Positions 4,890 through 35,053 of a DNA stretch of 64,000 nt are shown piece after piece. Every line of letters begins with the position of its first letter. Within the stretch, counting starts at the first letter, position 1. The stretch is from an uncultured Verrucomicrobiae bacterium (GTDB lineage: Bacteria; Verrucomicrobiota; Verrucomicrobiia; Chthoniobacterales; Terrimicrobiaceae). Made by a program: the position numbers and the translations under genes. Where the stretch lies: contig CAVPOC010000010.1 in the NCBI GenBank assembly GCA_963706955.1, forward strand, positions 64,001-128,000. Direction: 5' to 3'. Under the pieces are notes generated by a model that made no database searches, was not told the DNA's origin, and worked only from the letters and a program-made list of their open reading frames with translations.

Positions 4890-5709
4890 TTAACCCTTGA
4901 TAGCGCCCTCGGTCATTCCTTTGACAAAGAGCCGCATCGAAAAGGTGAAGAGGATGATTACCGGAATGCTGGCGATCGCGTAGCCAGCCATGAGGGGACC
5001 AAAGAACTTGATGTATTCTCCCGCGAGGCGTTGAAGCTGGACCATTACCGGCAGCGAGTCGGCATCCCGAATGACGATCAGCGGAAGGACAAATTCGTTC
5101 CATTCAGAGATGAAATGCATCACTCCCACAGTTCCGAGAATGGGTCCGCAGAGAGGGAGCACGACCATCCACATTTGCTGAAAGTGGTTGGCGCCATCGA
5201 TCTCAGCGGCCTCGAAGAGATCTTGCGGAATATCGGCAACAAAATTTCGCAAGACGAAGATGGCAAAAATCTGTCCCGCGGACGTTCCGACGATGATCAG
5301 CGCAGCGAGTGTGTTGAGCAGGTTGAGGTCAGCGAGCAGCCGAAAGAGCGGAACAAGGTTGGCGACCGAAGGCATCATCAATAAGACCAGCAAGGCATTC
5401 CAGAAGAAGCTGGAAAGGGGCATGCGCAACCTCGCAAAGAAATAGGCGCCGGACAGCGCAAAGAACAGGGTGAGCGCCGTGCCAAGCGTCGAGATGAAGA
5501 TGCTGTTGGCCACACTGGGCGAGATGATGTTCCAGGCAGCGACCCAATTGTGCCAGTGAAACGGCTCCGTCAGCCGTCCCGGGTGCCTCATAGAACTGCT
5601 GATTGGTTTTTAGGCTGACGACCAAAATCAGATAGACGGGGAGGAACGCACACGCGAGCACCGCCCAGATCGCTGCGTGCTTGAAGCCTCGCAGGAACCA
5701 GCCAGTCAC
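4890..5709 (-). CDS. Carbohydrate ABC transporter permease (MalG-like; frameshift near 5585)
   Basis: EAA loop IPQDLFEAAEIDGAN, WNEFVLPLIV, C-terminal FVKGMTEGAIKG. The N-terminus (FLPVYLILVVSLKT) is in an adjacent frame with a GTGA overlap to the upstream permease. Confidence 0.85.
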
Positions 5710-6891
5710 CCGCTCCGCCGCAAGGGAAGTGCTGGTTGCGCGGCGGGGCCTGCGGAATTCGCTCCGACCGAAGTCCGGCGAGCGAACTTGGCAACGAACT
5801 GGCGAACCGTCTGGTAGGGAAACGCCGCCACCACCAGGAAGAGGCCAATCGCGCGCCAGCCAGGTTGCAAAAGCAGGAAGATCCCGCCGCCATCACCGCG
5901 TAGGGTAGCAATTTTCTTACCCGGAGCGCGCGGGGATTTTCTTCGAGAACAAGCGAGCTGAGCTTTTGCAGAGCCATGATCACCACGGTGAGGATGATCC
6001 CAACGGCACAGGCGGCGCCCATCTCCTGGTTGATGAACGCCTTCCGAAGCATGAAGAGAGCGGGCACGGTTGCCTTGCCGCCCGGACCTCCATCCATTCC
6101 CGCCGGTCAGCGCAATGATCATGCCGGCATCCTTGATCGTCCCGATGATGACGAAGACGAGCATCAAGTAGATCGAGCTCATGATGAGCGGCACTTCGAT
6201 CCGCGTAAATTTGGTCCACCAGCTCGCCCCATCGATGCTCGCGGCTTCGTAGATGTCTTTCGGGATGTTCTGGAGCTTGGCTAGGTGCGTCAGAACGGCG
6301 AAGGAACCGACCCAGGGAAATCCCCAAATCACACAGGCGACAAGGATCAAGCGTGGATCGCCGAGCCAGGCCGGGCCGTGTGCCCTCAACAAAAATTCCA
6401 CCCCACCCAAAAAAGGCGTCTAGCTTGCAGAGAAGCGCGAAGAGCCCGGATGCTTCCAGAAATTCATTGAGGTACCCCTGGGTGGCCTCGAAGAAAAATG
6501 ACCTCCAAATCAACGCCACCACCAGCGCGGGGATGACCATCGGAACGACAAACAGCAACCGGTAGATATACTGCATGCGCTCACTGCTGCAGCGGTGAAT
6601 CCATACCGCCACCGCGATGGCAGGGATCATTTTGACCACGTTCCAAAGTCCCAGCAGCAAAGCGACCCGAAAGGACTGCCAGAAATCCGGCGAAGTGAAG
6701 AGCTCGATATAGTTCCTAAGACCGACGAACTCCGAGACGTCGGCACCATTCCAGCGATAGAAGCTATGAAAGATGCCGCTGGCGGCAGGGTAGTATTGAA
6801 ACAGGGCGATGAGAACGAGCGCAGGGACAATGAAGAGGTAGATCTCCCAATGATGCTTAACCTGTTTCCAGCGGATCTTCTTTGCCTGCAT
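5706..6891 (-). CDS. Carbohydrate ABC transporter permease (MalF-like; several frameshifts)
   Basis: YLFIVPAL..FVGLRNY..YRLLFVVPMVIP in one frame, LQNIPKDIYEAASIDGASWW in a second and MGAACAVGIIL in a third. Confidence 0.82.
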
Positions 6892-6897
6892 CAGCCG

Positions 6898-8608
6898 TTA
6901 GTTGCTCGCGTCCGCTTGGACGCCCTCTGCTTCCACAGAGCTGCGGACATTATCCAACGCTTTTCGCTGTATCGGTAAAACGTTTGCCTTTTCAGAGCTT
7001 CCGGGCTCCGTGAAGACAAGTCCCTGAATGATCAGCGTTTTGTCTGCCTCCAGTTGGCGAGTGAACGACGACGTTGCGATATTTATCCAATCGGCCTCGG
7101 CTTTGCGGTCCCTCTCTTTCATTGCCTTTTGGCGGAGTCCGACGGCCAATTGTTCATCCTGAAGCTGCGCGCGGCGGCGGTTGCGAAGGAACTCCCGAAA
7201 ATCTTCGCGACCACGCTGTCCAGAAGAGGCGAATTGCTCCGCCATGTCGTCGTAGCTGAGCTGGTTGATTTGGAATAAGGAATAGAGCTGGCTCCATTTG
7301 ATGAAGCTTTCGCCGCCCGATGGTCGCATCGAAGGCCGGAAGAACTCCTTCAAGGTCGGCTCGAAGGCTTGAGAAAAGGATCGACCTCAGCGCCGACAAC
7401 AATCGGGATCCATTTCAATCTCTTGTTGAATTTCTCGTTCTGGTGCCTGCTCGACGAGAAGAGGAGAAAGTCGACGGCCACGTCGGGATGGCTGGAGGTG
7501 CGCGTGACAGCCATGGGCATGTTCCTTCCGGCAGCTCGTAGCGTGGTCCTTGAATGATCGCGCCATAGTCGGGATCTGATGGGGCTGGCAGCTGGAAAAT
7601 CCATGAGCCCCAGCTCGAACTTTCCCTGCGCCTGCTCTTGAATGCCGCCCGCTTCGTAAATTCCCGCGGCAAGAAAAACGGCCTTTTCCTGCGCGAAATT
7701 GAAGAGGGCCTCGTCTCGGTCCAAGGCCTGACCAACCGCTCGGGAAGCTCCTTGGTGATGTCTCGACCATTTTGAAACTGGCTCGATAGGCGGGATTGGA
7801 AAAATCGACCTTGCCCGCTGGCAAAGCCCATGAACATCTCATCTTTGCTGAAACGTCCATCGCGGTTGAAATCGATCTCGCGAAGCGCGTCGATAGGTCA
7901 GCGGCTTGGCCATGCTGTCCTCCCAACGGATAAAATGGAAACGCGAGCCGGCAATGGCGACGTAGGGCTGGCCATTGGGCTGCTTCTGCGAGCGGATCTT
8001 TTCACACACCTTTAGAAAGGTGCGGTAAGTCCTTGGGCATTTCGTCGAGGCCGGTCAATTTTTTCAAGAGCGACTTGTTATAGAAAAGGCGCAGGCTGAC
8101 AGGGCGAGAGGGATGGTCATGAATTCCTGAGTCTCGTCGATGAACGATCGGCGCATCCCATCCTTGAAGGTGAGAAAGAGCGGGACACCCTCCAGATCTG
8201 TTCCCGCGTTGTAAGGATTCGGCTGCGTTACATAGGGAGAGAGTGGCAATAAAGTAGCGAACGAAGAAGGCTGTCATCAGAGTGAGCGTCGACCATTCCC
8301 GCCTGGACGATGTCGGGCGCGGTTCCTCCCATCAACTGCGTGCTCATCCATTGGCCATAGGTACTTTCCGGGATGGCTTCCTGGATGATGCGCACATTCG
8401 GATGCAGCTTTTCGTATTCGGCGGCAGCCTCCGCCAGGCCCTCGCGCGCTCCGGCTTCCAACTGCCAATGCGCAATGCGAATGCTGGTCACGTCGGATGC
8501 GTCTGCGGCGCGCTTGCGCGTGGCGATGGAAATCACCGCCCAAAGGAAAACAAGCCCAATGACAATCCAAGGCGCCTTGGTCTTGAGCGAGCCCAGGAAC
8601 TCTTTCAT
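6898..8608 (-). CDS. Sugar-binding extracellular solute-binding protein with N-terminal membrane anchor (multiple frameshifts)
   Basis: TM segment then IRIAHWQLE..YEKLHPNVRIIQ..GGTAPDIVQ. Downstream fragments include LFYNKSLLKKLTG and FELGLMDFP..HPDVAVDFL. It sits directly upstream of two permeases. Confidence 0.78.
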
Positions 8609-9519
8609 TGGAGGGCTCCTCCCAGGTATTGGGGCGGGAGGGAGCGACCTTCGCGAACTGCCGCTTCCACCGTATCCATCCTCGCCAAGGCTTTCCGCGA
8701 TGCGAAGACGCGACTCTCGCGCGGAAATTCGTTGATCAGGCGCTGGTAGTATTCACGCGCCAACGCGAAGTTGCCCGCCTCAAACTCCGCCGCGTAGGCA
8801 ATATTCCAATAGGCGGTGGAAAGCTCGAAGAACGGTGTTCTCGGATCCACTTCCCTGGTCTCGATTGCCTTGATCATATAATCGAGGCGCTTCTCCTCTT
8901 CGTTTAACCGGTGAGAGCCTTCTGCCATCAACGTGTAGAGCGAAGAGCGGAAGGGGGTCTTCGGATGCCGATCGAGGAACGCCTCGGTCTCGCCGAGCTT
9001 TTGCCGCGCTTCGTCCGCGGTCGCCGTCGGGAGCGTCAGTCGGATCTGATAGACAAACGCCTCTTCGCCCGCGAGCGAGTCAGGATATTTCTTGTAAACT
9101 TCGCCGTATTCTTGGGCGAGTTTCGAGTAATCGCGCTCTTGATCCGCCCCCGCAAGATGCTTCGCGCGGACGATGTCCAGCGCACACCAGGCGGCCAAAG
9201 GATTCGTCGGCGCTTGCGCGATAACTTCCTGATAGAGGGAGATAGCCTTCGCGGTATCGCGTCCATCGCGCCGGTGATTCCAACACGAGGCCATCCCGAA
9301 GAGGCTCTGTAGATAAGCCTCTGACCCGCGCGGTTGCGATGCCTCCACGGATTCGAAAATATCCAAGGCCTCGCCGAATTCGCTTAATCGATAGCGATTC
9401 CACCCTTCGCGAATCTGCTCTTCCGGCGTTGCCGTCTGCTCGTTGCCGCAGGCGTGGAAGACAAACACCAGCAGTGCAAAGGCGAATCGGAGGCTCCGCT
9501 GGGCTGGAAGCAATCGCAT
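8605..9519 (-). CDS. Tetratricopeptide-repeat protein, probable lipoprotein
   Basis: Signal-like N-terminus ending LVFVFHA-C. Helical repeats include AISLYQEVIAQAP and AREYYQRLINEFP. Its stop overlaps the SBP start (ATGA). Confidence 0.7.
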   Translation of the reverse strand: MRLLPAQRSLRFAFALLVFVFHACGNEQTATPEEQIREGWNRYRLSEFGEALDIFESVEASQPRGSEAYLQSLFGMASCWNHRRDGRDTAKAISLYQEVIAQAPTNPLAAWCALDIVRAKHLAGADQERDYSKLAQEYGEVYKKYPDSLAGEEAFVYQIRLTLPTATADEARQKLGETEAFLDRHPKTPFRSSLYTLMAEGSHRLNEEEKRLDYMIKAIETREVDPRTPFFELSTAYWNIAYAAEFEAGNFALAREYYQRLINEFPRESRVFASRKALARMDTVEAAVREGRSLPPQYLGGALQ

Positions 9520-9640
9520 CTCAAATGATCGAATTTCCCTCACCAAAAAATCAAATGCTTTGCACGATTGACGGACCCTCCTCACACGAAACTCAATTCA
9601 CCTCTTCGTCGAAAAGCAGTTGCATACAGCGTCTCCAGGC

Positions 9641-9700
9641 TTGTAGAGGCCCTTGTGCCAAGGGCCTGTCGACAGGCGGTTGGCACAACCGCCTCTACAA
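9641..9700. repeat. REP doublet (REPIN-like), GTAG-AGGC family
   Basis: TTGTAGAGGCCCTTGTGCCAAGGGCCT-GTCGAC-AGGCGGTTGGCACAACCGCCTCTACAA: two inverted hairpin units, each preceded by GTAG. Confidence 0.8.
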
Positions 9701-9858
9701 CTCGTGCGCAAACTCGGCTTGCGGCAATGCTCCGCCAAGTTGAAATGACGCAAACTCATGGGAACCGCCGAATCTAGGTCCACCCACCCTCGCGTCAACG
9801 GAAAACAAACAACCTGACCGAATTCCGCTCAAGGAGCTCCACTGCGGTCCAAAGGCGA

Positions 9859-10431
9859 TCAGGTACTCGAAGGTGGCGGCGGAAGAGGGACTTTTACTAT
9901 TGGCCCCTTCGCCCCATTTAACAGAAAGCTCACCGTTTGCTTTTGCGGCTCTCTGCCTTCAACCGTCGGCGGTGAAGGCGGCGACGCGAACTGGACCGAA
10001 ACCGTCCTCCCTTCGCCAGGCAAGAGAACGTTGGAAAAACCAGCCGGAAGATATTTTTTCGCCGGTGGCGCAGCAGGTGGTAGGGCCTCATACCGGCGTT
10101 GTGTTTGCTCATCGATCATGACAGCTGAAGCAAGCGAAAATGGTTTCAAATCTTCTTCAGGCACTTCGGTGAGGTTCGCTCCGGCAGGAAGTGGCCTTCC
10201 CATGCCAAGGAAAGTTCCCCCTGGGGAAGATCTGGTAGTCGCAGTGACTCGGACGAAAACCAAAAGGCGGTTATCCTGAATACGTTCAATTCGAGAGATG
10301 GAGAGAAGAACGCCAGCCCATTTAGTTTCCACCTCGCCCAAATTCTCCGCACGACGGCTCCTCTCCTGCGCACCAAGGCTAGTGACCAGGCAAAGAACGA
10401 TGGCCAGGACAGCTGAAGATCGTGGTTTCAT
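9859..10431 (-). CDS. Secreted hypothetical protein (beta-rich, Pro-rich), downstream of the pilin cassette
   Basis: 190-aa ORF with signal peptide MKPRSSAVLAIVLCLVTSLGA-QE; co-oriented with cassette gene A. Confidence 0.65.
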   Translation of the reverse strand: MKPRSSAVLAIVLCLVTSLGAQERSRRAENLGEVETKWAGVLLSISRIERIQDNRLLVFVRVTATTRSSPGGTFLGMGRPLPAGANLTEVPEEDLKPFSLASAVMIDEQTQRRYEALPPAAPPAKKYLPAGFSNVLLPGEGRTVSVQFASPPSPPTVEGREPQKQTVSFLLNGAKGPIVKVPLPPPPSST

Positions 10432-10515: not shown

Positions 10516-13500
10516 TTACCGAATCTCTTCGGAAGCTAGAACGCGGTACAAATACCGGGGCTGGAAAGGATGACCACCGGGATCCATCGGGTCGTCGTAG
10601 GTTCCGACCACAGCGTCAGTTCCAGGATTCGCACTGTTTCCGTAGACGTTGTCCGCACCAGGATCCAAATAGCGCTCAATGATGAAACGCAGCCGCACCT
10701 CGGCGAGAACATTGTCCCCAGGTTCGAATTCGTCATATTGCGTATTCGCTGGTTTCTTGTTGACCGCCTGCCCCACTGTCCACACGGAAAAGACATTTCC
10801 TTGTGTCGTGAGTGTGCCAACGATCTGCCGGACGAGATCGTTGCGTGTAGGATTGTTGGTGGCACGAAGATTAGCAATCTCCGGAACATTGCAGATCTCC
10901 GCAGGCATGCGCAGAGGCGCATTGGCGCGAATGTAGTTTTCAATGGCTTGCGCAATCGTGCTCGCATCGACAGCTGAGCCGTTCGTGAAAGTGGCGTTGG
11001 TACTTACGCCGGTGATGGTTTGGTTTATCCAAACGCCACTCAAGACGCTCTCGATGGGCAGCCGTCGAGAAACATTCGTTTGTGCAACATCCGCATTCGT
11101 AGTGTAGATCACCGCTCCATTGGGATTCACCTTGCCGGCAGTCGCTCCGCCGTAAGTGCCATAGTATAGCAGATTGGTAACCGCGGCATTGGTGCTCGGG
11201 GTCGCGGTCGCCGGATTATACGTGCTGCCGAAAGAAGCCAACGTGGAGGGAATGTAAAACAAATCCAAAAGCGCCCAGTCGGGATATGGGACGCTGGCAG
11301 AGTTAGTGGTTCTTTGCGCACTCGCCTCTGTCGATGGCGCGTAGCTCAGAAGGCGGAAAGGAGTCCCCTTCTGATCGGCGTAGGCCACTGTTTCATCATC
11401 CGGTATGATCCCACTACGAACATACTGAAGATAACCTATATTGGGCATTCGCGCGCTGCGGGGGATCTGTGTTTGAATCGCCACATCCGCAATCGATGTA
11501 CATAGCCCGGCGTCCGCTTGCGGCATCCAATAGGAATCAGGATCCGCGAGCCTGTCGCGGAAGTTTCCACTCATGGAATCGATGTCGTAATACTTATTAA
11601 CACTCGGAGAGATCGTGCTGGATGAAGAAATTATCCAGTCCCCCGGAAACTTATTTACCAGAGGGTCCTCCACGGCAGCCGCGACAACTTGGCCCGGTCC
11701 CTCCACGACAACATTCGCGCTGACTGGTATTACAGAGACCAAAACTCGCTCCCGCAAAGTGCCCTCGCCAGGTGTGTTGGTCTCCCACTCCGCATCGATT
11801 TGAGTCTCGGACCTATTTCCCTGGAAATTCGTGTACGGCTCTTCGGTAGTTACTCCGTCAACGTCGTAAGGGCCCCGGATCGCCTCGAGGGGGACCGGAT
11901 CCGGATCGCTCAGAAAGCCCCCCTTCATCTGGGTCTTGACGGCGATTCCGCCTTCGATCACCAAGGTCGAATTCGTGCTAACACTTGTCTGCATGGAGTA
12001 TCGGTAAGGGCTTCCACCGGTTTCAGCGTCGCCAAGCATGGACCGAATGACACGCATCTCTCCAGGTTGCCACTCATCGGCCGGCGAGGCGTTCGGCTCA
12101 AGGTGGGTCATAAAAAAAGGGCTTGCATAATCCTTGAATGTTCCCGAGGGCAAAAAGGAAGGCGCCTGCCCATCACCCCTCCATGGACCTGCCGCATTGG
12201 CTAGATCGAAACGAGCATACGGATCGTGAAATTTTTGCGCCAAAATCTGAGAATTATCTTCTCTGGGATTGGGATTGCCCTGAATGATGCCGGGATTTCC
12301 CGCAAGATCGATGCCCTGGTTGTTCCGCAAGAGCTGATCGGCCCAAAACCCGTCGATCTCGGGACTGTTAGCGTCAGGCTGGCGCGGAAGGGGGGCTGCG
12401 AATCGATTAGGCGTTGAGGGCTCCCCAGGCGCCCGCGGCATATCGACGACATTCAAAGTTGATTTCATTGAGCGATGCCCGACATAAGACTCAGAAGCCA
12501 GAAAATTGAGCTCTTTCCTCCCTCCGAAGTAACCAACTGGCAACCACCACTCCACCCAGATGTCAAAAGTGGCAAAGGGCGGCTCGTAATTGGGATCTTG
12601 CGGAGAATTAGTGGGAGTCGGCGAAGCAAACCCCGCAATCTCCATGTACATTTGGGTAACTTTCGGGGAGCGTCCAATCCCGTTTACCCACTTCCCGCTG
12701 AGCCAGCCGGGGAAAAGGTAAGGGACCACCATAAAGCGGTGGCCGATTTGCTCGCCAACACCGCTAGGGGTACCAGAGATATTAGGATAGTCGGACGAAA
12801 TTGCCTTCGAACCAATACTTAATATCTGAGCAATCAGGCTGTCCAACTGCCTCAGAGAGTATTTCCCGGCAAAACCGCCCGTCGACGATCCCGGAAAAAC
12901 CGGCCAAGTTAATGGACGCCCAACGTCGTTGATCCCGGCAAGATAATTAGCAAGGAGAAAGCCTTGATTGTAGGAGTAATTTGGGGAATCCCGCGGACCC
13001 TCTCGCAACGCATACGCGTAGGGATGGAACAGGTTGACACCAGTCGGATAGACGCCAAGCTCACCTCTTAGAGCGAGAGGCCAGGGATGATTGCGAGACG
13101 TTCCTGGGTCGATGTCGTAGCGACTTCTAATCACGAAAGGTCGCAACTGTGCCGGCGTTGGGTAGAACTCACGCGGCGGCAGTAACGTCAGGCTGTTCAA
13201 GATCATGTTGCTCGAATCCAATCCGTCGTGGCCCAAGAGCGGCGCGACAGATATCGTCGGCTCACCGAAGACGTTAAGCTCAGGGCTCCGACTGTGCGCG
13301 GTCAGTGAGAAGACATTGTCTGCAAACGCGGCATTCGTGACGCCAGAGACTCGCAGAATTTCGCGCGGAGAGGTAAAGCCATTTGTTCGCGCCATCTGAA
13401 CCACCTGTTTTGCCGGTCCGTTTGTATTGTTTCCCAAGAGGACGCCCAGACTGACCTCACTCGGCGTTCCGATTCCCAGCGAATTGGTGGTGTATTTCTC

Positions 13501-14070
13501 CGTTCCATCAGCCGTGTTGACATTGATCTTTGCGCCTTCGTCATCGACCCAAAAAGCATAGCGACCGATGATCGCATTGTTGGAACCTGCGGACTGTGTG
13601 GGATCGCGCAGCACGCTCGCCCACTTGACCGAGACTTCTGGCGCATTCGACCCGCCAATGATCGGATAGGATCCATCAATGAGCTGACGGTTGAGGTTCA
13701 CCAGGGCTGTCCCGGGGGATTCCGAAAACAACCCGATGTTCGTGAGCGGGTTTACGCTCGAATACGACCAGCGGGTGATGCGTCCGGGCGAGAGAGACCA
13801 ATAGAAGGGAGGGTTGCTAGCGGCAAAATTCTTATACGGATCATCCCAGGGGCCAAGCGCGTCGCGGATTTTAGCCAGGGCTTGGTGCGCTCCCACCATC
13901 GCGATGCCGTAGGCTCTCTCCTGGTCCAAACTCGAGCCGGCCGTCTTTGTCTCGAGCATGACACTCGCGAGATAGCCCACGGTCACCACGGTGATCAGGA
14001 CGATGATCACGAGGGTCATCACCAAGGCCGAGCCGAGGCGTTTGGAGAGCGGGTTTCCTCGAGGTTTCAT
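10516..14070 (-). CDS. Verru_Chthon cassette protein A (large PilX-like pilin/adhesin)
   Basis: 1184 aa; G-SALVMTLVIIVLITVV N-terminus, GRYAFWVDDEGAKINVN, PDWALLDLF, GKVNPN, LTTQGNVFSVWTVGQ, E-R---IERYLDP, YRVL. These are the conserved blocks of this family. Confidence 0.88.
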   Translation of the reverse strand: MKPRGNPLSKRLGSALVMTLVIIVLITVVTVGYLASVMLETKTAGSSLDQERAYGIAMVGAHQALAKIRDALGPWDDPYKNFAASNPPFYWSLSPGRITRWSYSSVNPLTNIGLFSESPGTALVNLNRQLIDGSYPIIGGSNAPEVSVKWASVLRDPTQSAGSNNAIIGRYAFWVDDEGAKINVNTADGTEKYTTNSLGIGTPSEVSLGVLLGNNTNGPAKQVVQMARTNGFTSPREILRVSGVTNAAFADNVFSLTAHSRSPELNVFGEPTISVAPLLGHDGLDSSNMILNSLTLLPPREFYPTPAQLRPFVIRSRYDIDPGTSRNHPWPLALRGELGVYPTGVNLFHPYAYALREGPRDSPNYSYNQGFLLANYLAGINDVGRPLTWPVFPGSSTGGFAGKYSLRQLDSLIAQILSIGSKAISSDYPNISGTPSGVGEQIGHRFMVVPYLFPGWLSGKWVNGIGRSPKVTQMYMEIAGFASPTPTNSPQDPNYEPPFATFDIWVEWWLPVGYFGGRKELNFLASESYVGHRSMKSTLNVVDMPRAPGEPSTPNRFAAPLPRQPDANSPEIDGFWADQLLRNNQGIDLAGNPGIIQGNPNPREDNSQILAQKFHDPYARFDLANAAGPWRGDGQAPSFLPSGTFKDYASPFFMTHLEPNASPADEWQPGEMRVIRSMLGDAETGGSPYRYSMQTSVSTNSTLVIEGGIAVKTQMKGGFLSDPDPVPLEAIRGPYDVDGVTTEEPYTNFQGNRSETQIDAEWETNTPGEGTLRERVLVSVIPVSANVVVEGPGQVVAAAVEDPLVNKFPGDWIISSSSTISPSVNKYYDIDSMSGNFRDRLADPDSYWMPQADAGLCTSIADVAIQTQIPRSARMPNIGYLQYVRSGIIPDDETVAYADQKGTPFRLLSYAPSTEASAQRTTNSASVPYPDWALLDLFYIPSTLASFGSTYNPATATPSTNAAVTNLLYYGTYGGATAGKVNPNGAVIYTTNADVAQTNVSRRLPIESVLSGVWINQTITGVSTNATFTNGSAVDASTIAQAIENYIRANAPLRMPAEICNVPEIANLRATNNPTRNDLVRQIVGTLTTQGNVFSVWTVGQAVNKKPANTQYDEFEPGDNVLAEVRLRFIIERYLDPGADNVYGNSANPGTDAVVGTYDDPMDPGGHPFQPRYLYRVLASEEIR

Positions 14071-15561: not shown

Positions 15562-16010
15562 GCTCAGAATATATCAGAATGGGATCGATTGTCTTTTTGA
15601 TGCTTATTCTCGCGGCCGTAGGGCATCCGCCCCGTAGTGCACGATCAAACTATTAGCTTAGCGCACCTTTGCTGTCGTTTGTACGAGAGCCAATTCGTGC
15701 AGCGATTTTTCCAACCGCGATTTTGAAATCAAACAAATCCTAATATCCGGGACCTTGATTTCGACCCGATTAGCCCGGCGTTGGAACCCGTTGAATGTTA
15801 GCTTGCCGGCGGAATAGATGAAGGCACACCACTGAGCAGAGGCGGGTGCCGCCAACGCCGGCGAAGCAAGACAGAATCTAGCTGTAGTGCGGGCTACCCA
15901 ATCAACATGAGGCGACGATTGCCTCTTGAAAACATAAAGCAGACACGTAAAACTTTTCTTGCATTTTGGTAGGGAACTCTCGACAGTGCGTTATCTCCCC
16001 GATTTGATAG

Positions 16011-24168: not shown

Positions 24169-24244
24169 CACTCCCGGCCTTCAATCCTCCTGAAAGGCGA
24201 CCAGCAACACACGAGGTGCAAACTCCAACGAGAAGGAAAAACCA

Positions 24245-25282: not shown

Positions 25283-25299
25283 TAGCGCAGCCGAAATCG

Positions 25300-27708
25300 A
25301 TGATTCCTAGGATCGCTATCCAGCTCGCGCACGAAACTCTTAGTGCCTTGAAAGTTCGCCTCCTCTCGTGTCTTTGCGTTGTCACGTGGTGCATTGGGCA
25401 GGGCACGCTTGAGGCTACCCCAGCTCGCTCTCTTGATGTGACGACCGGGGGCGATTGTCAGATTAGCAGTCAAATTTTTGACCTCCAAGGAAAGCTGGTG
25501 CGCTCCTTACGACCCTTCGGACCGGTGAGCGCCGGAACTCATAAGCTTCAATGGGACGGTCTGGATGATAGCGGCAACCAAATGCCCCCGGGCGAATACG
25601 AGTGCCGAATTGTCTTAAACCCAACCATCTACGCCACCGCGGGAGCTCTCGGGAACACCGCCCGGCCGCCGACGGTTAACCTAAACCCCTCCGAGATTCA
25701 GTCGGTGGCCGTCGATGCCGAAGGCCATGTCTATACGGCCAATTTTTGGGAGGAAGCCGCGCAGGATTTTCGCAAGTGGAACCGTGACGATGGGTTCCAT
25801 GTCTTCAACGCGCAGGCACGCATCCGTAACGGCAACCCAGACGCGCTGCCCTATGCGATCGCTGTCGATGAGAAATACATCTACTGTTCGACTTATTCCC
25901 ACAGGGTAAACGCACAACAGCATATTCGTCGTTTCCGACTCAAGGATGGAGAGTCGGCGCCGTTTCCTGCCGCCGCGGCAACGAAAGGGTTTATTTTAGT
26001 TCATGATAACCCCGAGGAGAAAGCTGCAAAAGCGGGAAAAGCTGGCCCTGAAGATCTTTGGAAGCTGCCGTTGCGGGCCCTTGCCGTATCGCGTGGGAAG
26101 CTCTTCGTCACCGACGCTTTGGACGGAAGAGTGCTCTCCTTCGACAAGGAGACCGGTGCGCCGCTCGGTTCGTTCAAGGTCAACTTTCCCCACGCGCTCG
26201 CCATCGACTCGGTCGGGAACCTTTGGGTGGCACACGAAGACGGAGCGATCACCGTATTTAGCCAGGATGGTCAACGTTCTGTCCCAGTCCTAAAAACCTT
26301 GAAACATATTCGGGCGCTTGCTTTCGGTCCAAACAATCTGCTCTACGTCGCCGACAGCGGGACCAACAAGGTGCACATCTTCCGGGTCGATCCCGCCAAG
26401 GCAACCGCCACTTTCCTGCTCAGCTTCGGCCAGCAGGCAAAGCCCGGCGACTACGCGCCGGACCGCTTTCACGAACTTAAAGGAATTGCCGTGGACTCCG
26501 CGGGAAATTTTACGATTGCCCAGGGCCTGGAAGTCACCGGAGCGCGCCTGACCCGGTTCGCGCCGGACGGGCGCGTTATCTGGGACCACGTCGGCGCTGA
26601 GTTTACCAACACCGCGAGCATCTCCAAAGAACATCCCGACGAGGTAATCTCGCAGGTCTTTCATCGCTACAAGGTAGACAAGAAGACCGGAGCTTGGGAG
26701 TTCCGCGGCAGCGTGCTGGATGGCGACCCGAAATATATTCGCTGGATGCACGGCCCCATGCGGCTGCAAAAGCTGGGCGAAACCGAATTCGCATTTCAAG
26801 GTTACGGCGATGGGCTGCAAGTCTATCGGCGCGAGGGCGATCTCTATCGTCCGGCCTCCATGTTTGGCCGTGGCAATCCCTTTCCTGATGGTATCTATCA
26901 CGATGCCATGAAAGAAGGGGAACGACGCCCTAAAGAGGCGATCTGGTCATGGACGGATGTGAATGGAAACGCCAAGGTCGATGAGGAGGAAGTCACCTGG
27001 ATCACGGACCGAGAGTTCGTATCACCCTTCCATAATTTTGGAGTCAGCATCGACGCTGATGGCAATGCCCTCATCTGCAACGACGCGATCACCGAAATTC
27101 CGATGACCGGCTTCGATGGTCGGGGAAATCCCATATACGACCTGACCAAGATGCGGACAATCGTCCCGCGCGACACCTCCGAGAATCCTCTCTTCGCGAA
27201 TCCGGTCATGGCAATCCGCTCCGATGACGGCAGCATCTACGTCCAAACTCGCTCGAAACACTTTCCCAAACCCCAGGAGGCCGAGGGTGGCTGGATGGCG
27301 GGATGGGTGCTCATGCGTTTTGACAAGGATGGCAAAATGCTCTGGTACCGCCAACTGCCGGCAGCCTGCCCGGGAATGGACGTGATCCCAGGAGGTGGCG
27401 GAGTCATGCTCGTAAACATCAAGTTGGAGAAAGAAGGCTGTGACATCTACCATTACAATCAAGACGGCTCATTGATTGGTATAACCAGGCCTTCAGCCGC
27501 GTTCAGGAGCCCGGGCGGAATTCCCGATAACACTGCTTCGCTGGTCATTAGTCGAGATACCCGAGACGGTATAATCGATATGTTTGTTGAGGATTGCATC
27601 GGCAATCGCTTCTACTGGATGCGAGTCGACGATCGTAAAAAGCCCGAGGTCCGCAGCATTCGCTTGCGTCTAGAAGAGCCCGATTCAAACCTCACCAACA
27701 ATCGGTAG
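25300..27708 (+). CDS. Secreted FlgD-Ig plus NHL/SMP-30 beta-propeller protein
   Basis: 802 aa; IFDLQGKLVRSL..AGTHKLQWDGLDDSGNQMPPGEY (FlgD Ig); repeats VAVDAEGHVY, LAIDSVGNLWV, LYVADSG, IAVDSAGN; DVNGNAKVDEEE. Confidence 0.78.
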   Translation: MIPRIAIQLAHETLSALKVRLLSCLCVVTWCIGQGTLEATPARSLDVTTGGDCQISSQIFDLQGKLVRSLRPFGPVSAGTHKLQWDGLDDSGNQMPPGEYECRIVLNPTIYATAGALGNTARPPTVNLNPSEIQSVAVDAEGHVYTANFWEEAAQDFRKWNRDDGFHVFNAQARIRNGNPDALPYAIAVDEKYIYCSTYSHRVNAQQHIRRFRLKDGESAPFPAAAATKGFILVHDNPEEKAAKAGKAGPEDLWKLPLRALAVSRGKLFVTDALDGRVLSFDKETGAPLGSFKVNFPHALAIDSVGNLWVAHEDGAITVFSQDGQRSVPVLKTLKHIRALAFGPNNLLYVADSGTNKVHIFRVDPAKATATFLLSFGQQAKPGDYAPDRFHELKGIAVDSAGNFTIAQGLEVTGARLTRFAPDGRVIWDHVGAEFTNTASISKEHPDEVISQVFHRYKVDKKTGAWEFRGSVLDGDPKYIRWMHGPMRLQKLGETEFAFQGYGDGLQVYRREGDLYRPASMFGRGNPFPDGIYHDAMKEGERRPKEAIWSWTDVNGNAKVDEEEVTWITDREFVSPFHNFGVSIDADGNALICNDAITEIPMTGFDGRGNPIYDLTKMRTIVPRDTSENPLFANPVMAIRSDDGSIYVQTRSKHFPKPQEAEGGWMAGWVLMRFDKDGKMLWYRQLPAACPGMDVIPGGGGVMLVNIKLEKEGCDIYHYNQDGSLIGITRPSAAFRSPGGIPDNTASLVISRDTRDGIIDMFVEDCIGNRFYWMRVDDRKKPEVRSIRLRLEEPDSNLTNNR

Positions 27709-27987
27709 CGCGGCGAGCTTGGACTGCAGAGAAAGGTGCGGAGAGATCGCTCTTAAACTACACCATCTGGTCCATTCGGATCATTGGGATTGCAGATCCC
27801 TTTCTGAGTAGTAACGTGCCGGCCAACGCAACTGCCAGCCCGGCGAACGCTCAATTTTGTCTCACGAGCATGTCGAGCTTGATTTGCCGGCGAAAGCCTC
27901 CAAACTGCTCTTTCTTGTTGCACGAATACTAAAATTGTCTCTATTGGCTTTGATCTACTCAGGACACCTTTTTTCTTCCCCAGGCTT

Positions 27988-30802
27988 GTGAAGAATCGAC
28001 GATTGATAGGGACGTTGGCATCGTCTGTTGGAAGGCGAGCGGCAACCGCTTGTGTCTTCGCCTGCGTGCTGGCGGTGGGGTTCTCATTTTTGGGGCTGGC
28101 CAATTCGAATGCTCAAGAACAGGCGCCAGCCGCGGAGTTCGAACAGGTGTCGACCGCGGAGCTTGAGAAGCAGGCGAGCTTCATGGTGGGAGCTCAAAAG
28201 TATGATGCGGCCGTTCCGCTTCTCACGGAGCTGGTAACCAGACTCGGCGAGTCCACAGATCCCCAGTTGCAATCCAAGGTAGAAGGGTTCCGCTATTTTC
28301 TGGGCCTGGGACACGTTTTCACTGACCAATGGGACGCGGCCGCGCAGGTATTCGAAAGTTTCCTCAAGGCTCATCCGAAGAGCAATCGGTATCGCAAGGT
28401 CCTGGAGCTCCATGGCGATACGCTGGTGCAATCAAAGCGATACCCGGAGGCGGCCGAGCAATACAAGAAGCTTCTCGAGATGAAGCTGCCGGAGACCGAG
28501 ATTTTCCCGATCATGGAGAAGCTCGCCTCGTGCTACATGCGCGATCAAAAATGGACCGAGGCGATCCCAGTCCTGCAGACGATGCTGCAGAAGAGCTGGA
28601 CTCCGGAGCAGCGAGAGCAAGCGGTCGTTTGGCTTGCGCAATCTTATATTGAGTCCGACCAAGGGGCCAAAGTGGTCGAGCTTCTGCCCGACATGCTCAC
28701 GAAGGCCCCGCGGGCAAGACTGAGTATCGACTTCAATCTGGCGTTGCTGAACGGAGGCGACAAGATGTTCGCGGCGCAACAGGACGTTCTCGCGCTCCTT
28801 TTCTACAATCTGGTCCTGCCGCCGGCGCGACTCCTCGAAGCCAACAAGAAATATCAAGCCGAGCTGGAGTGGTGGAGAGAGCAAGTGCGCAAGTCAGGAC
28901 AGCAGCTCGAGCTGGTGGTCGATATCAATCGGCGCATCCAGGATCTGCAGAACGAACGCACCCAACTGGAGGCAATTCCAGATTTTTCCGAAGACCTCCT
29001 CATGCGCATCGCCCAGGCCTATTTCTCCGCCGGCACGCCTTTACGAGACGTTCTGGACCTACTGGAAAATCTATGAGGACTTATCCGAACGGAAAGCTGG
29101 CCGAGGATTCGTGTTACGGCGCGTTTGCGCTTGCCGCTCAGCTCGAGCAGGACACCAAGGCGAAAGAAGCGGGGCTGAAGTATCTCTCGTCGTTCCCAGA
29201 AGGAAAGCAGTGGGAAGATGTCAGTCTCCAGCTAGGCCAGGTCTTCGTTCGCAACCGGGAATACGCTACGGCGATCGATTACTACAACGAGATCCTCAAG
29301 GTCCGGCCGGAGCATGCCTACAAAGATCAGATTCTTTACATGCTCGGATTTTCCGAGTTTCAGGATGCGCGCTTTGCGGAGGCCCGACAGACATTTCAGA
29401 CCCTCAGCCGCGAGTTCCCGAGCAGCGACAAGGCGTCGCCCGGTCTCTACTGGGTCGGCATGACATTTCTTTTTGAGGATAACTATAAGGATGCCCTCGA
29501 AGCGTTTAATCGATTCACTGAGAAGAGCACTGACGGCAGGCTCTATCAGGACGCCAGCTTCCGAAAGGCTGTCTGCCTCTACGGCTTGGAGAACTACACG
29601 TCGGCGGCGGAGAACCTAGAGAGATTTCTCAAAGAGTTTCCTACCGACACGCTCACCCCGGAGGCGCATACGCTCCTGGCCGACTGTTATGGCGCGATTG
29701 GAGAGCTCGAGAAGGCTCTTGATCACTACAAGCAGGTCGAAGATTGCGCGGTGAAGCAAAGCCAGATCGACTACGCGGCGCTTCAGATCGGTCGCATTCA
29801 CGAACAACTCGAGCAGTTCAAGGAGATGGAGGAGTGGTTCGCTCGATATCTGGAGAAATACGGGCTCAAGGGCGACTACACCCAGGCAATCTACCGCAAA
29901 GGTTTTGCGCAACAGGCTCAGGGGAAATCAAGAGAGGCTATCGACACCTACTGGCAGGCGATTGAGAAATACGGCAATGACCCCAAAGCAATGGGCATTG
30001 ATATCATCATCGATGCCTACTGCGAGGAAGGTCGCTCCGTCCAAGGTCTCCAGCCGCTCGAGATTATTCGCTCGGCTGCCCTCACCGCTGAACAGCAAAA
30101 CGAACGCACCCGCGCTCTTCGCTTCCAGCGCGCGCTCGCGCAACTTGATCCGAAAGCAATTCCACCTGTGCTGAGCGCGGAGGACGTTGCGCTGGCCAGC
30201 CCAGCCGTCTTGCTTTGGATGGCGGAAGTCCTCGAAAAGACCAACCCGACGCTCGGAGAGAGCGCTGCCCGCGCTGCCATCGACAACTTCGGTCCGACCC
30301 AATGGACCGGCGAGGCTTTCTTCAAACTCGGTAATTTCGCTTTCGACCGCCGAGACTGGAAACAGGCCGAAACTGGATTCAACAAAGCGATCAGAACGTC
30401 TCCCATGAATGACGTCGCCGCGCGAGCCACGATGCGATTGGGCGACGTCAAGCGCGCAGCAGGGGCACTTCGACGAGGCGATCAAACGCTACCAAGAAGT
30501 TCTCCAGGTCAAGGAATGGAAGGGCGAGCTCTGGCCCGCAAGCCCTCTACTTCCTCGGCGAAAGCCTCCGCGAGCAGGACAAGGAAAAGGAAGCCTACGC
30601 CTACTTTCAGCGCATCTACGTCCTCTATCCCCATTACAAGGAGTGGACCGCCAAAGCCTATCTTCGTTGCGCCGAGATTTCCGAAAAGCTCGGCTTGAAA
30701 GACGATGCTGTGCGGACGCTCGGGGAAATGCTCGCCAATCAATCTCTGCGCTCGACGCCCGAATACGCTGCGGCTGAGCAAAGACTCAAGGAGCTGCAGT
30801 AA
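27988..30802 (+). CDS. Large exported TPR-repeat protein (roughly 930 aa after joining about 4 frameshifts)
   Basis: Signal peptide, then many TPR units (AAQVFESFLKAHPKS, ARQTFQTLSREFPSS, FLKEFPTD). Frames join near 29034, 29081, 30457 and 30540. It ends AYFQRIYVLYP..EQRLKELQ* at 30802. Confidence 0.8.
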
Positions 30803-30804
30803 TC

Positions 30805-31902
30805 ATGAGGACCGCACTTGCCGCTCTTTTCTTGTTCGCCGCGCTGGCCGCCTCAAACGGCCAGACACCCGGTCAAACACCTCCCGCTCCGCCTGTTTCC
30901 GGCTACCGGGTAACGATCACCGATAGCAAGTCGGGGAAGACCAGCAACGTCCACGCTTCCAAGGCTTGCCGGAGGTCAGTTTTACCTTGTGGCAAGTGGT
31001 GGCACGATTGCCATTCCCGCCAGCACCATCTCCGCCGCCGAGTTCGAACTGCCCACGGCAGTGAGGCAGGCCTCGGAAGCATACCGCTCCGGTGATGTGG
31101 AAAAAGCCGTCTCGCTTTATCCGGCCATCGAACCGATGCGCAGCTTTGTCGCGCTGCCCAAGTGCAATGTCACCGAGGAGTTTCTCAACTTCGCCGACGC
31201 CTACCGTCAGACACGCAAGTATGCCGAAGCCGAGGCTTTGTTGCGTTCTCTGAACTTCGGTGAGAACAAGGAAGCGCCGCTCCGCGCAACCTTGATACGC
31301 GCCTTTATTCTCTGCGACAAGAACGAGACCGCCAAGGCCGAAGCTCTCATGAAGGATTTTCCTCACACCAATCCGGAGGACTTGAATTTTCCGCTCGACC
31401 GCATTGTGCGAACGCGCATTTTCCTGGCGAATGGAAAATTTCACGAGGCGGCCCTTGAAGCGGGCGAAGCCGTCGCCATCACGCGCATCGAGGCACCGGT
31501 TTATCCAGAATCTCTCTATCTGGCAGCCGCATGCTACGAGAAGATGGGAGAAGTAGTGGAAAAGCAAAAGGCCGGTCGCGACCGGACGGAGAGCGAGAAG
31601 ATCATGGACGAGACCATCGATTACGCGGCCGTCAGCAACTCGGTGCGACAGCAGTTGGCGCTTCTTTTCTCGAACAACTACTGGGCGAAGAAAGAACCCG
31701 TCAACGTCGAGGAACTCCTCGCCGCGGCCGCCGGGGTAACTCTCAAGTCCGCCAAGAAAACCGAATTCCGCTGCCACCAGCGAGGAACAACAGCCCCAGA
31801 CTGCCGAACAAGCTCGAAGAAAAAGAAAAGCCCGTTTGGGAGAACTTTCTCAAACAACCAGAAGCCAAACCAGATAATGAAGAAATCGATAGTCAACTCT
31901 AG
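30805..31902 (+). CDS. Exported TPR-like protein (frameshifts near 30950 and 31770-31815)
   Basis: Signal peptide MRTALAALFLFAALAASNGQ; helical repeats (ESLYLAAACYEKMG). The likely true C-terminus is EEKEKPVWENFLKQPEAKPDNEEIDSQL*. Confidence 0.65.
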
Positions 31903-32776
31903 ATCCGTCGCCGGCGTTCTCGGTCTCACGACGATGGCCGTCCTGCTTGGATTCCTTCCGTTCGTGACGGATTCGCAGGCACAAGAGTCCCCTGCTCCGG
32001 CGGAACAGACCTCGCCGGAACCAGCAGGCGAACAGGCGGCCGCGCCGAAACATAAGGACAAGACCTTCTTCCAAGTCTTAAGGGAGGGCGGCATCGTCAT
32101 GATCCCGCTGGCCGCCGTTTCCGTATACATGCTCACGCTCATTATCGACAGCGTGCGCCGGATTCAGAATAAGGTGGTCTGTCCTCCCGATATCGTTAAT
32201 CTCCTGCGCTCTCAGTTCAGCGCCGGAGACTACAACGCCGCCTTCCAAACGTGCCGCTCGAAGTCCTGCTTTCTGACGAACGTCGTTAGGGCCGGACTAA
32301 GCATGCTTGGTCAGGGAAAAGAAGTCACCGAGAAGTCGATGGAAGACGTGATGGCCAAAGAGATCGCCTCGATGAATACGCGTATCTATTACCTGAATTT
32401 GATTGGTGTGGTTACTCCGATGATTGGTCTCACCGGAACCGTGCTGGGAATGATGAGCGCCTTCAAGACGCTCGGCACAAGCGGCATCGGCGATCCGTCT
32501 GCGCTTGCCGGCGCGATCGGTGAAGTTCTCGTGGCTACCGCTACCGGTCTCTTCGTCGCCATCCCCGGTTTCGCGAGCTACTATTTCTTCCGCAATCGCA
32601 TCCAGGCAGTCGCCAGCCATACCGAAGAGGTGATTAACAATCTCTTCCGCGGCATGCCATATGCCTACCTGGCGGGAATGAACATCGGCGACGATCCTAT
32701 CTACGCCGCCATCCCCAAGGAATACATGGCTGCCAACGAGCAGCCAGCGGAGTTTGCGGAGCAGCAATCCGCGTAG
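31877..32776 (+). CDS. exbB: MotA/TolQ/ExbB proton-channel protein
   Basis: GGIVMIPL, LIGVVTPMIGLTGTVLGMMSAF, LAGAIGEVLVATATGLFVAIP; N-terminal signal-like extension. Confidence 0.9.
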   Translation: MKKSIVNSRSVAGVLGLTTMAVLLGFLPFVTDSQAQESPAPAEQTSPEPAGEQAAAPKHKDKTFFQVLREGGIVMIPLAAVSVYMLTLIIDSVRRIQNKVVCPPDIVNLLRSQFSAGDYNAAFQTCRSKSCFLTNVVRAGLSMLGQGKEVTEKSMEDVMAKEIASMNTRIYYLNLIGVVTPMIGLTGTVLGMMSAFKTLGTSGIGDPSALAGAIGEVLVATATGLFVAIPGFASYYFFRNRIQAVASHTEEVINNLFRGMPYAYLAGMNIGDDPIYAAIPKEYMAANEQPAEFAEQQSA

Positions 32777-32790
32777 GTTCTTGGGGTGCC

Positions 32791-33219
32791 ATGAAGATCA
32801 GATCGCCACATGCGGAGGAGCTTGGGTTCCAAATCGCTCCCATGTGCGACGTCCTCCTCGTTTTGCTCGTCTTCTTCATTTCGATAACCGCCACCAGCGC
32901 CCTGCGCTCCGACCGTGCCATCGAACTGCCGGTGGGACCCAATGCGACAAAAAAGGCCACCGCACGTTCCGAAGCTCTCATCAACGTCAAGTGGGTTCCG
33001 GAAAAGTCCGCTGGAGTGGTCGCCCTCGAGAGCAAGGTTATCACCGAGCTTCCCGCGGTGACCGAAATGCTGGCCCCGCGCTCGAAAGCCGATCCCAATT
33101 ACCGCGTCGTCATTCGGGCGGACCGGAAGACTCCCGCCCAATATGTCGAGAAGGTCATGGCTGCGTGCGCTGAAGCCGGCATCACCGACATCGCCTTCTC
33201 GGTTTTGAACCGCGACTAG
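32791..33219 (+). CDS. exbD: ExbD/TolR biopolymer transport protein
   Basis: FQIAPMCDVLLVLLVFF with the conserved Asp; VVIRAD; AGITDIAFS. Confidence 0.9.
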   Translation: MKIRSPHAEELGFQIAPMCDVLLVLLVFFISITATSALRSDRAIELPVGPNATKKATARSEALINVKWVPEKSAGVVALESKVITELPAVTEMLAPRSKADPNYRVVIRADRKTPAQYVEKVMAACAEAGITDIAFSVLNRD

Positions 33220-33222
33220 TCC

Positions 33223-33663
33223 ATGCGCATCCACTCCGAACCCGAAGGAAATCTGGATTTTCAGATCGCTCCGATGGTCGATGTGATCTTCATCCTCATC
33301 CTTTTCTTCATGTGCTCGGCGGGCGCTACCAAGGTCGAGAATGAACTGAGCCTCAAGTTGCCAGGCCGCGTCTCGCAGGATCAGCCCATGCGCATGCTCG
33401 ACGAACAGATCATCGAAATCGAAGAGAATGGTCAGATCATTTTGAATGATCAGCAAATGGACACCGCGGCGCTGGCGGGAACACTCCAGCGCTATAAGGC
33501 CATTTCGGATGACGCGAAGTCCGGGACGGTTATCACCATCCTCACCGCCAGGAACACGAAATACCAGCGGATCATCGACGTGCTCAATGAATGCGCCGCC
33601 GCAAAGATCGAATCGGTCACCTTCATGACGCGACCAGACGAAAACAAGCTGGCCTCCCGATGA
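33223..33663 (+). CDS. exbD: ExbD/TolR biopolymer transport protein (second copy)
   Basis: FQIAPMVDVIFILILFFM; YQRIIDVLNECAAAKI. Confidence 0.9.
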   Translation: MRIHSEPEGNLDFQIAPMVDVIFILILFFMCSAGATKVENELSLKLPGRVSQDQPMRMLDEQIIEIEENGQIILNDQQMDTAALAGTLQRYKAISDDAKSGTVITILTARNTKYQRIIDVLNECAAAKIESVTFMTRPDENKLASR

Positions 33664-35053
33664 GCGACACGACCGCAAATCCTCAGGACTTCGTCACCAA
33701 GCGCAAGCAACCGCTTCTTGGCACGTTTTCGATCAGCGTTCTCATCCATGCGGCCATGATCGCGCTGCTCGGAGGTGTCGTCGTCTTCAAGGTCCTGGAA
33801 CGACCGCCTGCTCAATTCAAGCCGCCTCCGCCGCCGGCAAAGGTCACCAAACTCGAGCCGAGAAAGCTCCAGCATAAGATCAAGATTCGCGAGCAGCAGC
33901 AAAATAGCGGCCGGCCGCGCGTCTCCCCGCGCCTGACCGCTAACCGCGTCTCCGGCATCTCGCTGCCGGAGATCGAGGTGGACCCGATGGCCGAGCCGGT
34001 CAAGACAAACATTCGCAAGAGCCTCGGCAAGAATTTCTCCAAAGATGGTCTTGGCACGGGATTCGGGAGCGGAACCGGCTCCGGGGGACTTGGCCTGGGC
34101 ACCTCTACCGTAAGCTTCTTCGGAATCAACGCCAAAGGGGAACGAATTGCCTTTATCATCGATCTCTCGCGCAGCATGGTGGAAGACGAGAAAGGGGGGT
34201 TAAATGGCATCGTTGTCCTGAAGAACGAGCTCAAGAAGATGGTTGAAAAGCTCAACGATGGCACCTTCTTTAATCTTATTTTCTTCGACGACAGCGTTGA
34301 CATCTTCAAACCAAAGCTGGTCGTCGCCAAGAGCGACACGAAGAAAGAGGCCGACGCGTTCATTTCCCCTTATTACTCAGAATACGGCAAAGAACTGCTC
34401 GCAGAACTATTCCGAAGACAAGCGGAGTTGGCCCTCGGCAACGCGCCTGCGCAACTACACGATGCCGATGATGGAATCCCGAGGGAAATACGTCTCCGAT
34501 GGTGGCCACACGAACAGCCAAATCGATGCTCCTCTCGTCGCCGCCTTTCAAATGCAGGCAGACACCATCTTCATCATCAGCGACGGAGCCCCGATTTTTG
34601 AACGTGCCCTCTTTGGCAAAGAGCTCGAAGGTATACGAAAAGAAGGTGGCGGAAGCGCAGGAGAGATGGGCGAAGGTGATGGAAAAGGACCACGCAAAGA
34701 TCGAGAAAGCCAATAAGGAGAGCACGGAAAAATATTGGAAAGAAGTCGATGCGGAGAACGCCAAGCGAGCCCGTCAAGGATTGCCGCCAAAGGTTGCCGA
34801 ACAAGGAGGACCAGTCGGACTGGGCATGAGCGTCGGACGTCCGAACCTATCCACCACCGAGACCATTGACTACATTCGGGCTCTGGCGGCCGAGCTCTAC
34901 GGCGACGACAAACGAAAGTTTCCCAGAATTTATACGGTCTCCTACGGGGCCGACGCCGCCGGCGAAGCGTTCTTGAAAGCCCTCGCTCAGGAATTTCACG
35001 GGAAGTTCAAGAGGATTCGCGGCTTGGCCGATCCGGTGAAAGTTAAAGGCTAA
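33660..35053 (+). CDS. Membrane-anchored Pro/Gly-rich vWA-domain protein (frameshifts at about 34410 and 34630)
   Basis: TM SVLIHAAMIALLGG, PPAQFKPPPPP, Gly-rich linker, FFGI, MIDAS-like FIIDLSRSM, FNLIFF, DTIFIISDG, FLKALAQEFHGKF. ATGA overlap with exbD. Confidence 0.78.

Follow-up and report, generated by a model that had tools for sequence, protein, structure and literature searches.

Verrucomicrobiota are major degraders of glycans in both soil and sea, and the uptake route of those without the SusC/D system is an open question. A block of genes that bears on it is located at positions 4890 to 35053 of the window, the whole stretch of 64,000 nucleotides that was analysed (G000:C10:64001-128000), which comes from the metagenome-assembled genome (MAG) G000 of an uncultured Verrucomicrobiae bacterium (4.16 Mb in 15 contigs; 92.5% complete). 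In this block, a cassette of minor pilins, a sugar-sensing regulator, glycoside hydrolases (GH), an ATP-binding cassette (ABC) importer and an operon for an ExbB/ExbD-type motor were found together. Domain calls on the block proteins were made with Pfam and NCBIfam; 56 open reading frames (ORFs) of the window were scanned, and 25 block proteins were compared with NCBIfam-type models. With good confidence, the block can be taken as a locus for sugar utilisation, conserved within a genus of soil Terrimicrobiaceae. As to its function, we tentatively favour, at a little short of an even chance, foraging on xylose-containing glycans without SusC/D, the motor powering a step at the cell envelope.

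Conservation of the block was analysed within about 40 kb around each of 10 genus copies of cassette A, the largest pilin-like gene. The order cassette-regulator-GH39-[cargo]-motor was the same as in the window for 9 of the 10 loci (8 genomes; G017 twice), at 50-97% identity, and the tenth lies on a contig of 8.8 kb. Three more loci carry regulator-GH39-motor on contigs that end at the regulator. Seven of these nine loci have the ABC importer on the left, as does G018, the stretch of G009 being too short to tell. Within the genus the block is placed between a hydantoinase gene and a wcaJ cluster. Inside this fixed frame, two slots hold exchangeable cargo genes. The right slot carries the trio of the window (proteins of 1271, 345 and 802 aa) in 5/9 loci and elsewhere GH3, GH4, an AraC regulator, secreted proteins bearing carbohydrate-binding module (CBM) family CBM9, glycosyltransferases (GT) of families GT2/4/8/47, or nothing. 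The left slot (9586-9858), empty in the window, extends over 2-9 kb in relatives, with a DUF6259-like protein of about 720 aa, GH35, FlgD/NHL and CBM9 proteins, and GT8/GT2. In two loci, GH31 and an MGH1-like GH stand just after the vWA gene at the end of the motor operon. The adjacency of GH39 and motor was kept through all cargo swaps, with direct contact in G006 and G009. Relatives of cassette A that bear a name belong to Terrimicrobiaceae and Chthoniobacterales; soil and rhizosphere runs contain near-identical DNA. The block was observed twice, on different contigs, in G017 (L034) and in G003.

The regulator (16916-18181, minus strand), composed of a GntR-type helix-turn-helix and a LacI-type sugar-sensing domain by Pfam, shows 89-97% identity across the genus loci. 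The neighbouring gene encodes a GH39 enzyme (18584-20257, plus strand; PF01229, E 1e-99), for which the best PDB matches were beta-xylosidases (E 1e-92) and both catalytic Glu motifs (NEP, TEWS) are kept. As no signal peptide was recognised by eye, the enzyme looks beta-xylosidase-like and cytoplasmic, and would act after ABC uptake; in an earlier note on this DNA, hydrolysis had been placed before that step. Three cargo genes follow on the plus strand. The first (20353-24168) encodes a secreted 1271-aa protein with FlgD-Ig, propeller-like repeats, a predicted GH-A barrel and NEW3. Its description as a GH-A/propeller protein is favoured by NEP/E motifs (E738, E849) and by Atlas look-alikes of GH5/39/42, but the GH-A part gave no match in Pfam or PDB, and no solved relative was found. 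A fragmented paralogue of this protein was observed at G000:C6:200918-204581, followed by ORFs resembling PA14 domains by eye. The second cargo gene (24245-25282) codes for a secreted 345-aa protein, for which a lectin-like nature had been suggested; this was not borne out, no match being obtained in Pfam or PDB even with an alignment. The third (25300-27708) codes for a secreted FlgD-Ig/NHL propeller protein of 802 aa, as identified by Pfam.

To the left of the regulator lies the pilin cassette. Cassette A (10516-14070, minus strand) encodes a PilX/GspK-type N-terminus followed by a body of about 1100 aa and is a predicted pilus-tip subunit; no solved relative was found for it. Next come a C-like minor pilin with a weak GspJ match (14076-14996, minus strand), a B-like minor pilin with a weak GspI/XpsI match and a true start that is probably internal (14962-15525, minus strand), and a D-like minor pilin divergent from B-C-A (16011-16682, plus strand). 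The four proteins had been assigned to Verru_Chthon. All four models did match, but all below the TIGRFAM cut-off (bits against cut-off: A 119/332, C 46/257, B 40/51, D 24/70), and pilin D lies on the plus strand. Pilin D is divergent in all genus loci and co-directional in G024, G023, G035, G028, G020 and G025. A, B, C and D resemble the tip set of PilX/GspK, GspI, GspJ and FimU/GspH type. After cassette A, in every genus locus and also in G023, comes a secreted 190-aa protein (9859-10431, minus strand) for which Pfam and PDB gave no match. By TIGR02600, one cassette was detected in the MAG. A second, more distant minor-pilin cassette was observed at G000:C3:674707-679477 (L146), with C and B matches and an 898-aa A-like gene, adjoining genes for myo-inositol catabolism. 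The pilus platform was found outside the block: Amuc_1102, Amuc_1101 and two secretins of the 1098 family, all above cut-off, are located in MUL2 order at C8:248-258 kb, and the MAG also has PilC, four PilT/U and a prepilin peptidase.

Linkage of such cassettes to glycan genes was analysed using 20-kb stretches centred on 10 cassettes (G083 and G024) and 10 hand-picked controls (Pfam, E 1e-12; 96 and 117 ORFs in the two sets, with 11 ORFs of the cassette-A region excluded). A GH, carbohydrate esterase (CE), polysaccharide lyase or CBM family was present near the cassette in 9/10 cases against 3/10 controls (p=0.01), within the limits of two genomes and a crude ORF picker. One control proved to hold a cassette A gene, and the counts became 10/11 against 2/9 after regrouping. 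These findings support the conclusion that Verru_Chthon cassettes co-occur with glycan-degrading genes beyond controls, as the earlier note had anticipated. Closer cassette homologues outside the genus also stand among GHs and sugar transporters. Across the class, TIGR02600 at E 1e-25 gave matches in 3/71 genomes, with at most 7 candidates scored in each, too few for a class-wide test.

The left end of the block is occupied by the importer genes, all on the minus strand: a fused double permease (4890-6891; MalF+MalG-like, assigned by Pfam/NCBIfam and orthologues), a membrane-anchored sugar-binding protein (6898-8608; SBP_bac_1/8; 568 aa in the orthologue) and, directly upstream of the latter in the window and in orthologues, a tetratricopeptide-repeat (TPR) protein with a lipobox-like Cys by eye (8605-9585). 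The claim of a sugar ABC importer stands for the binding-protein and permease domains, but the permease is a single fused gene (665 aa in the orthologue) and the block holds no ATPase. MalK-like genes are located elsewhere in the MAG, including one at C6:259863 without adjoining permeases.

The right end is formed by the motor operon, on the plus strand. It encodes a large exported TPR protein of about 970 aa that is Mul1A-like (27988-30802; 972 aa in the orthologue), a small exported Mul1B-like protein of about 360 aa with a beta-domain and TPR (30805-31899), the ExbB/TolQ-type proton channel subunit (31877-32776), two ExbD/TolR proteins, each with the transmembrane Asp (32791-33219 and 33223-33663), and a von Willebrand factor type A (vWA) protein (33660-35053; 463 aa in the orthologue). 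The assignments of ExbB, both ExbD and the TPR proteins were borne out by Pfam/NCBIfam, together with those of the regulator, GH39 and the FlgD/NHL protein. Two TPR genes indeed precede ExbB, but the ORFs at 27988 and 28869, once taken separately, are one gene, and the second TPR gene is that at 30805. The fold of the vWA protein was confirmed by a structural model and Foldseek, the top matches being vWA domains (E 8e-8); mean pLDDT was 59, with a low-confidence linker at residues 75-153. The protein resembles a TonB-like force transducer, with a transmembrane helix (residues 20-46) bearing S-x-x-x-H, a Pro/Gly-rich linker and a vWA head of the metal-ion-dependent adhesion site (MIDAS) type. 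Among 85 homologues, the transmembrane His was found in 80 and Ser at -4 in 68, and the MIDAS residues D, S and S in 82, 66 and 65. The vWA protein would dock on the motor and transduce force.

The vWA-arm profile matched in 19/71 genomes of the class and in 0/7 of the genus of the Akkermansia muciniphila genome G087. Six ExbB homologues were detected in the MAG, and a second, order-wide TPR-TPR-ExbB-ExbD-ExbD-vWA operon lies at C8:311-318 kb, indicating that the window copy is an extra; both MAG operons adjoin an FlgD/NHL protein. Three independent co-locations with sugar genes were found in other lineages: cassette A, RhaT, a LacI-like gene and the motor operon in G024; a prepilin, GH78, CE15 and the motor operon in G086; and, in G073, a lone vWA arm flanked by GH127 and a sugar ABC importer. 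At L083, L085, L091 and L093 (G084, G092, G067, G055), one motor operon is followed by two or three tandem vWA arms, and further arms stand alone elsewhere; vWA arms may be swappable specificity units.

No match to PF00593 or PF07715 was obtained in the whole MAG, and none to PF00593 in the block carriers G001, G006, G011 and G013 (94-97% complete). Among 41 genomes searched, 19 had PF00593 matches; G004, G009, G010 and G003 have 1-5 of these, none inside the block. The claim that a TonB-dependent receptor is absent therefore holds for the MAG, and that for SusD covers the 56 window ORFs scanned, where no family match was found, no genome-wide search having been aimed at SusD. TonB_C gave three matches in the MAG, two of them beside their own ExbB/D pairs. 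A TonB-dependent receptor elsewhere as the explanation of ExbBD was rejected for the MAG and the four carriers.

Conserved elements stand upstream of GH39, of the motor operon and of the pilins in both directions. The element before GH39 (18540-18564, plus strand) consists of TTGACA and RTAY-N6-TGTYT, and that before the motor operon (27917-27940, plus strand) has the core pattern in common with it. RTAY-N6-TGTYT, drawn up after the sites had been seen and with one site class inside a coding sequence dropped, gave 5 matches in the window against 1.1 expected, and 3.7 per locus against 0.5 per 40 kb. A held-out operator test was passed by the GH39 site when three classes were used for training (P 0.005) and by the cargo site (P 0.03). 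A scan for sigma-70 promoters and terminators gave no excess over shuffles. The core pattern was also observed upstream of GT8 in two loci.

For the preferred reading, glycan foraging with the motor at the envelope step, the following pathway may be proposed. A retractile type IV pilus, the platform of which is encoded elsewhere, would carry minor pilins A-D as its substrate-specific tip. The glycan is predicted to be cut by the secreted cargo, among it the 1271-aa GH-A protein. By homology to MUL1, proton flow through ExbB-ExbD-ExbD would be converted into a force that acts on the vWA arm; by pulling on the two TPR scaffolds, the arm would bring fragments into the periplasm, with entry most plausibly through a secretin because the block encodes no pore. 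The sugar-binding protein and fused permease are predicted to import oligosaccharides with a shared MalK-like ATPase, and cytoplasmic GH39 to release xylose. The whole locus would be switched by the GntR/LacI protein.

Several observations weigh against this reading, and service of the motor to the sugar locus is its weak link. Outside the genus the motor operon lies mostly away from sugar genes: among 17 intact operons, a pilin was near at least 2 and a recognised sugar gene near at least 4, both counts being lower bounds because only selected ORFs were scanned. None of the 7 cassette loci of G083 has a motor operon within about 8 kb, and the vWA match there is more than 100 kb from any of them. 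The genus loci represent one inherited locus, and therefore demonstrate stability, not repeated assembly. Even in the genus, cassette A has an orthologue in 7/9 near-complete genomes against 9/9 for the motor. In G006 it is split by transposase-like and reverse-transcriptase-like ORFs as judged by eye (L041, G006:C3:346006-352355), and no ABC importer was found within 9 kb to the left of that cassette. The 'self-contained' pathway of the earlier note is not supported, as the block encodes neither an ABC ATPase nor an outer-membrane pore and the pilus platform is elsewhere. PilB gave no match in G000, G001 and G009; it was found in 6/9 near-complete genus genomes and, as a tandem pair, in 9/18 other genus genomes, and the gap in G000 may be a missing contig or a real loss. 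Cargo slots also hold GT2/GT4/GT8/GT47. In the held-out test, the motor site (P 0.13-0.45) and the pilin D site (P about 1) failed, and an operator common to GH39, motor and pilins is not established. The large TPR protein aligned with Mul1A at 99.4% over 846 columns by hhalign, but generic TPR proteins score as well.

A serious, though doubtful, alternative is that a pilin-tipped sugar locus stands beside a general-purpose vWA operon for envelope upkeep or another task, entry taking place via porins or a secretin without the motor. The vWA-arm operon is widespread as noted above, mostly beside housekeeping genes; in the genus it has its own conserved upstream element and sits beside lipoprotein-wcaJ genes, and the parts of PMC12204202 considered here, on such operons, give no sugar link. 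This alternative is opposed by the second, order-wide motor copy of the MAG, which leaves the window copy as an extra, by the adjacency to GH39 that survived all cargo swaps, and by the three co-locations in other lineages. It is unlikely that the motor and TPR scaffolds, instead of importing, export or display the FlgD/NHL and GH proteins or drive movement over glycan particles. The FlgD/NHL neighbours of both MAG operons would fit such a role, as would the gliding suggested for vWA arms (PMC12204202) and the association of CAZymes with Mul1A; the FlgD/NHL cargo is, however, absent from the right slot in 4/9 loci and was not detected beside operons outside the genus, and the block has no dedicated outer-membrane translocon.

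Quite improbable is a role of the locus in trimming and recycling xylose-containing capsule or exopolysaccharide that the cell itself makes with the neighbouring wcaJ/GT/Wzy cluster. A cluster of 25 kb for polysaccharide synthesis does start 2.5 kb to the right, and the GT8, GT2, GT4 and GT47/RXYLT1-like genes in cargo slots, with the core pattern upstream of GT8, point the same way, but in other families cassettes are accompanied by catabolic GHs, esterases and sugar transporters while no such cluster is present, and GH4, GH3, GH31, GH35 and the importer fit catabolism. An assembly chimera or a set of decaying pseudogenes is hardly credible. Five genes are frameshifted in G000, namely those for the sugar-binding protein, the permease, both TPR proteins (the small one into the ExbB frame) and the vWA protein, as found by six-frame reading; all are whole in orthologues. 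The same gene order is kept in 8 other genomes, in agreement with the absence of chimeric assembly. For near-identical organisms, short-read contigs from 3 studies (4 runs) were compared over 15600-35500, no contig spanning the whole stretch. One-base extras of G000 at 29034, 29077, 30961, 31756, 31815, 34400/1 and 34630 are absent from these contigs at the points where the frames break, and the frameshifts at these 7 sites between 29034 and 34630 are therefore most likely assembly errors.

Other features were observed around the block. An amine-oxidase-like gene at 2513-3710 runs over two frames, another likely assembly frameshift. A GC-rich short repeat element is present at 16785-16857 and at about 35107-35265; in the MAG it gave 38 matches by blastn, and the read data have many loose ends there. 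Directly after the vWA gene, a GH17-like protein (35386-36492, minus strand; by eye, no Pfam match at 1e-3) is encoded, also in G017, G008 and G016; a Pfam GH17 follows the motor operon in the distant G073. At 37589-63933 (minus strand) lies a large exopolysaccharide cluster with WcaJ-like, many GT4/GT2, Wzy, ABC exporter, UDP-sugar dehydrogenase and Wzc-like genes.

Among known systems, the motor operon comes closest to the vWA force-transducer locus of Planctomycetes-Verrucomicrobia-Chlamydiae (PVC) bacteria, which has the order TPR, tolQ-like, two tolR-like and vWA and is of unknown function (Williams-Jones et al. 2025, PMC12204202); no glycan link or mention of Akkermansia occurs in the parts of that paper considered. 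Gene order, a transmembrane His of SHLS type, a disordered Pro-rich linker and the vWA head are the same, whereas the window has two TPR genes before the motor and the operon is fixed in a sugar locus, next to pilins, GHs and the ABC importer. As the same architecture and gene order are described there, the motor operon appears, from its sequence, to be this locus, already known in silico.

MUL1 comprises mul1A (amuc_0544), mul1B (amuc_0543) and ExbB/D (PMC13174399, PMC12570417, 10.1101/2024.03.27.586211); Mul1A is described as a gene for mucin transport (PMC12570417), and an association of nine CAZymes with it is reported (10.1101/2024.03.27.586211). The A. muciniphila locus in G087, which by gene content would be MUL1, reads ExbB-ExbD-ExbD-TPR(1077)-347 aa with no vWA gene; the order ExbB-ExbD-ExbD-TPR-347 aa without vWA was also found in G079. 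Alike are ExbB, two ExbD, a TPR protein of about 1000 aa followed by a protein of about 350 aa, and the lack of a receptor in the locus; the Akkermansia locus differs in its permuted order (motor first), in the missing vWA gene, in identities of about 11-17% and in having no pilins, GHs or importer. By hhalign, the small TPR family matched the A. muciniphila 347-aa protein at 94% (E 1e-7, 244 columns; control TPR 2%), a relation for which an HMM search did not reach E 1e-3. The likeness to MUL1 proposed in the earlier note is supported, except for the vWA protein: the motor operon would work like MUL1, to which it is probably related at a distance, but is set apart from membership by order and content. 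The vWA protein as a MUL1 part was rejected, and so was the Akkermansia TM/Gly-rich protein as a vWA arm, its domain being of toroid type. MUL1 has been read as gut-specific, since no Mul1B homologue was found in aquatic Akkermansiaceae (PMC13174399); the remote Mul1B-like family in other families questions how far this specificity holds.

MUL2 (amuc_1098-1102), around which no carbohydrate-binding genes are found (PMC13174399), also ties a type IV-like pilus to glycan use, but MUL2 is a platform and the window holds a minor-pilin tip set. The pilin cassette had been likened to the MUL pilus locus; this was rejected, since the true MUL2 orthologue lies at G000:C8:248-258 kb and no Amuc_1098/1101/1102-family match was found among the 25 block proteins. 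With Verru_Chthon A-D (TIGR02600, 02598, 02599, 02596), the cassette shares four pilin-like genes, an A of about 1200 aa and matches to all models, but scores are below cut-off and the inverted D precludes one co-directional operon in the genus loci. No paper naming the Verru_Chthon cassette or its accessions was found, nor was the cassette-glycan link or a joint cassette/motor sugar locus found in print, in a search that did not extend to Davey 2023 and Hughes 2025. What is new is the association of the cassette with glycan genes and its union with the motor in one sugar locus, each part having been known or described in silico before.

In Bacteroidota, SusC/D polysaccharide utilisation loci (PULs) combine a regulator, transport genes and GHs, the enzymes being swappable, and use a proton-driven motor. 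The block is alike in all these respects, but is without SusC, SusD or a TonB C-terminal domain, and has pilins and an ABC importer instead. To the two orphan modules, cassette and motor, it offers a substrate class, an inducer to seek and enzymes to assay, and the locus is a good test case for SusCD-independent uptake. It is possible, if somewhat doubtful, that Verrucomicrobiota have their own equivalent of a PUL, with a minor-pilin tip that can be swapped in the place of SusD and a secretin in that of SusC; an ExbBD motor with a vWA arm and TPR scaffolds of MUL1 type would haul glycan fragments into the periplasm. MUL1 would then be the gut version of a class-wide machine, and no earlier locus would have shown a tip, a motor, enzymes and an importer together under a single regulator.

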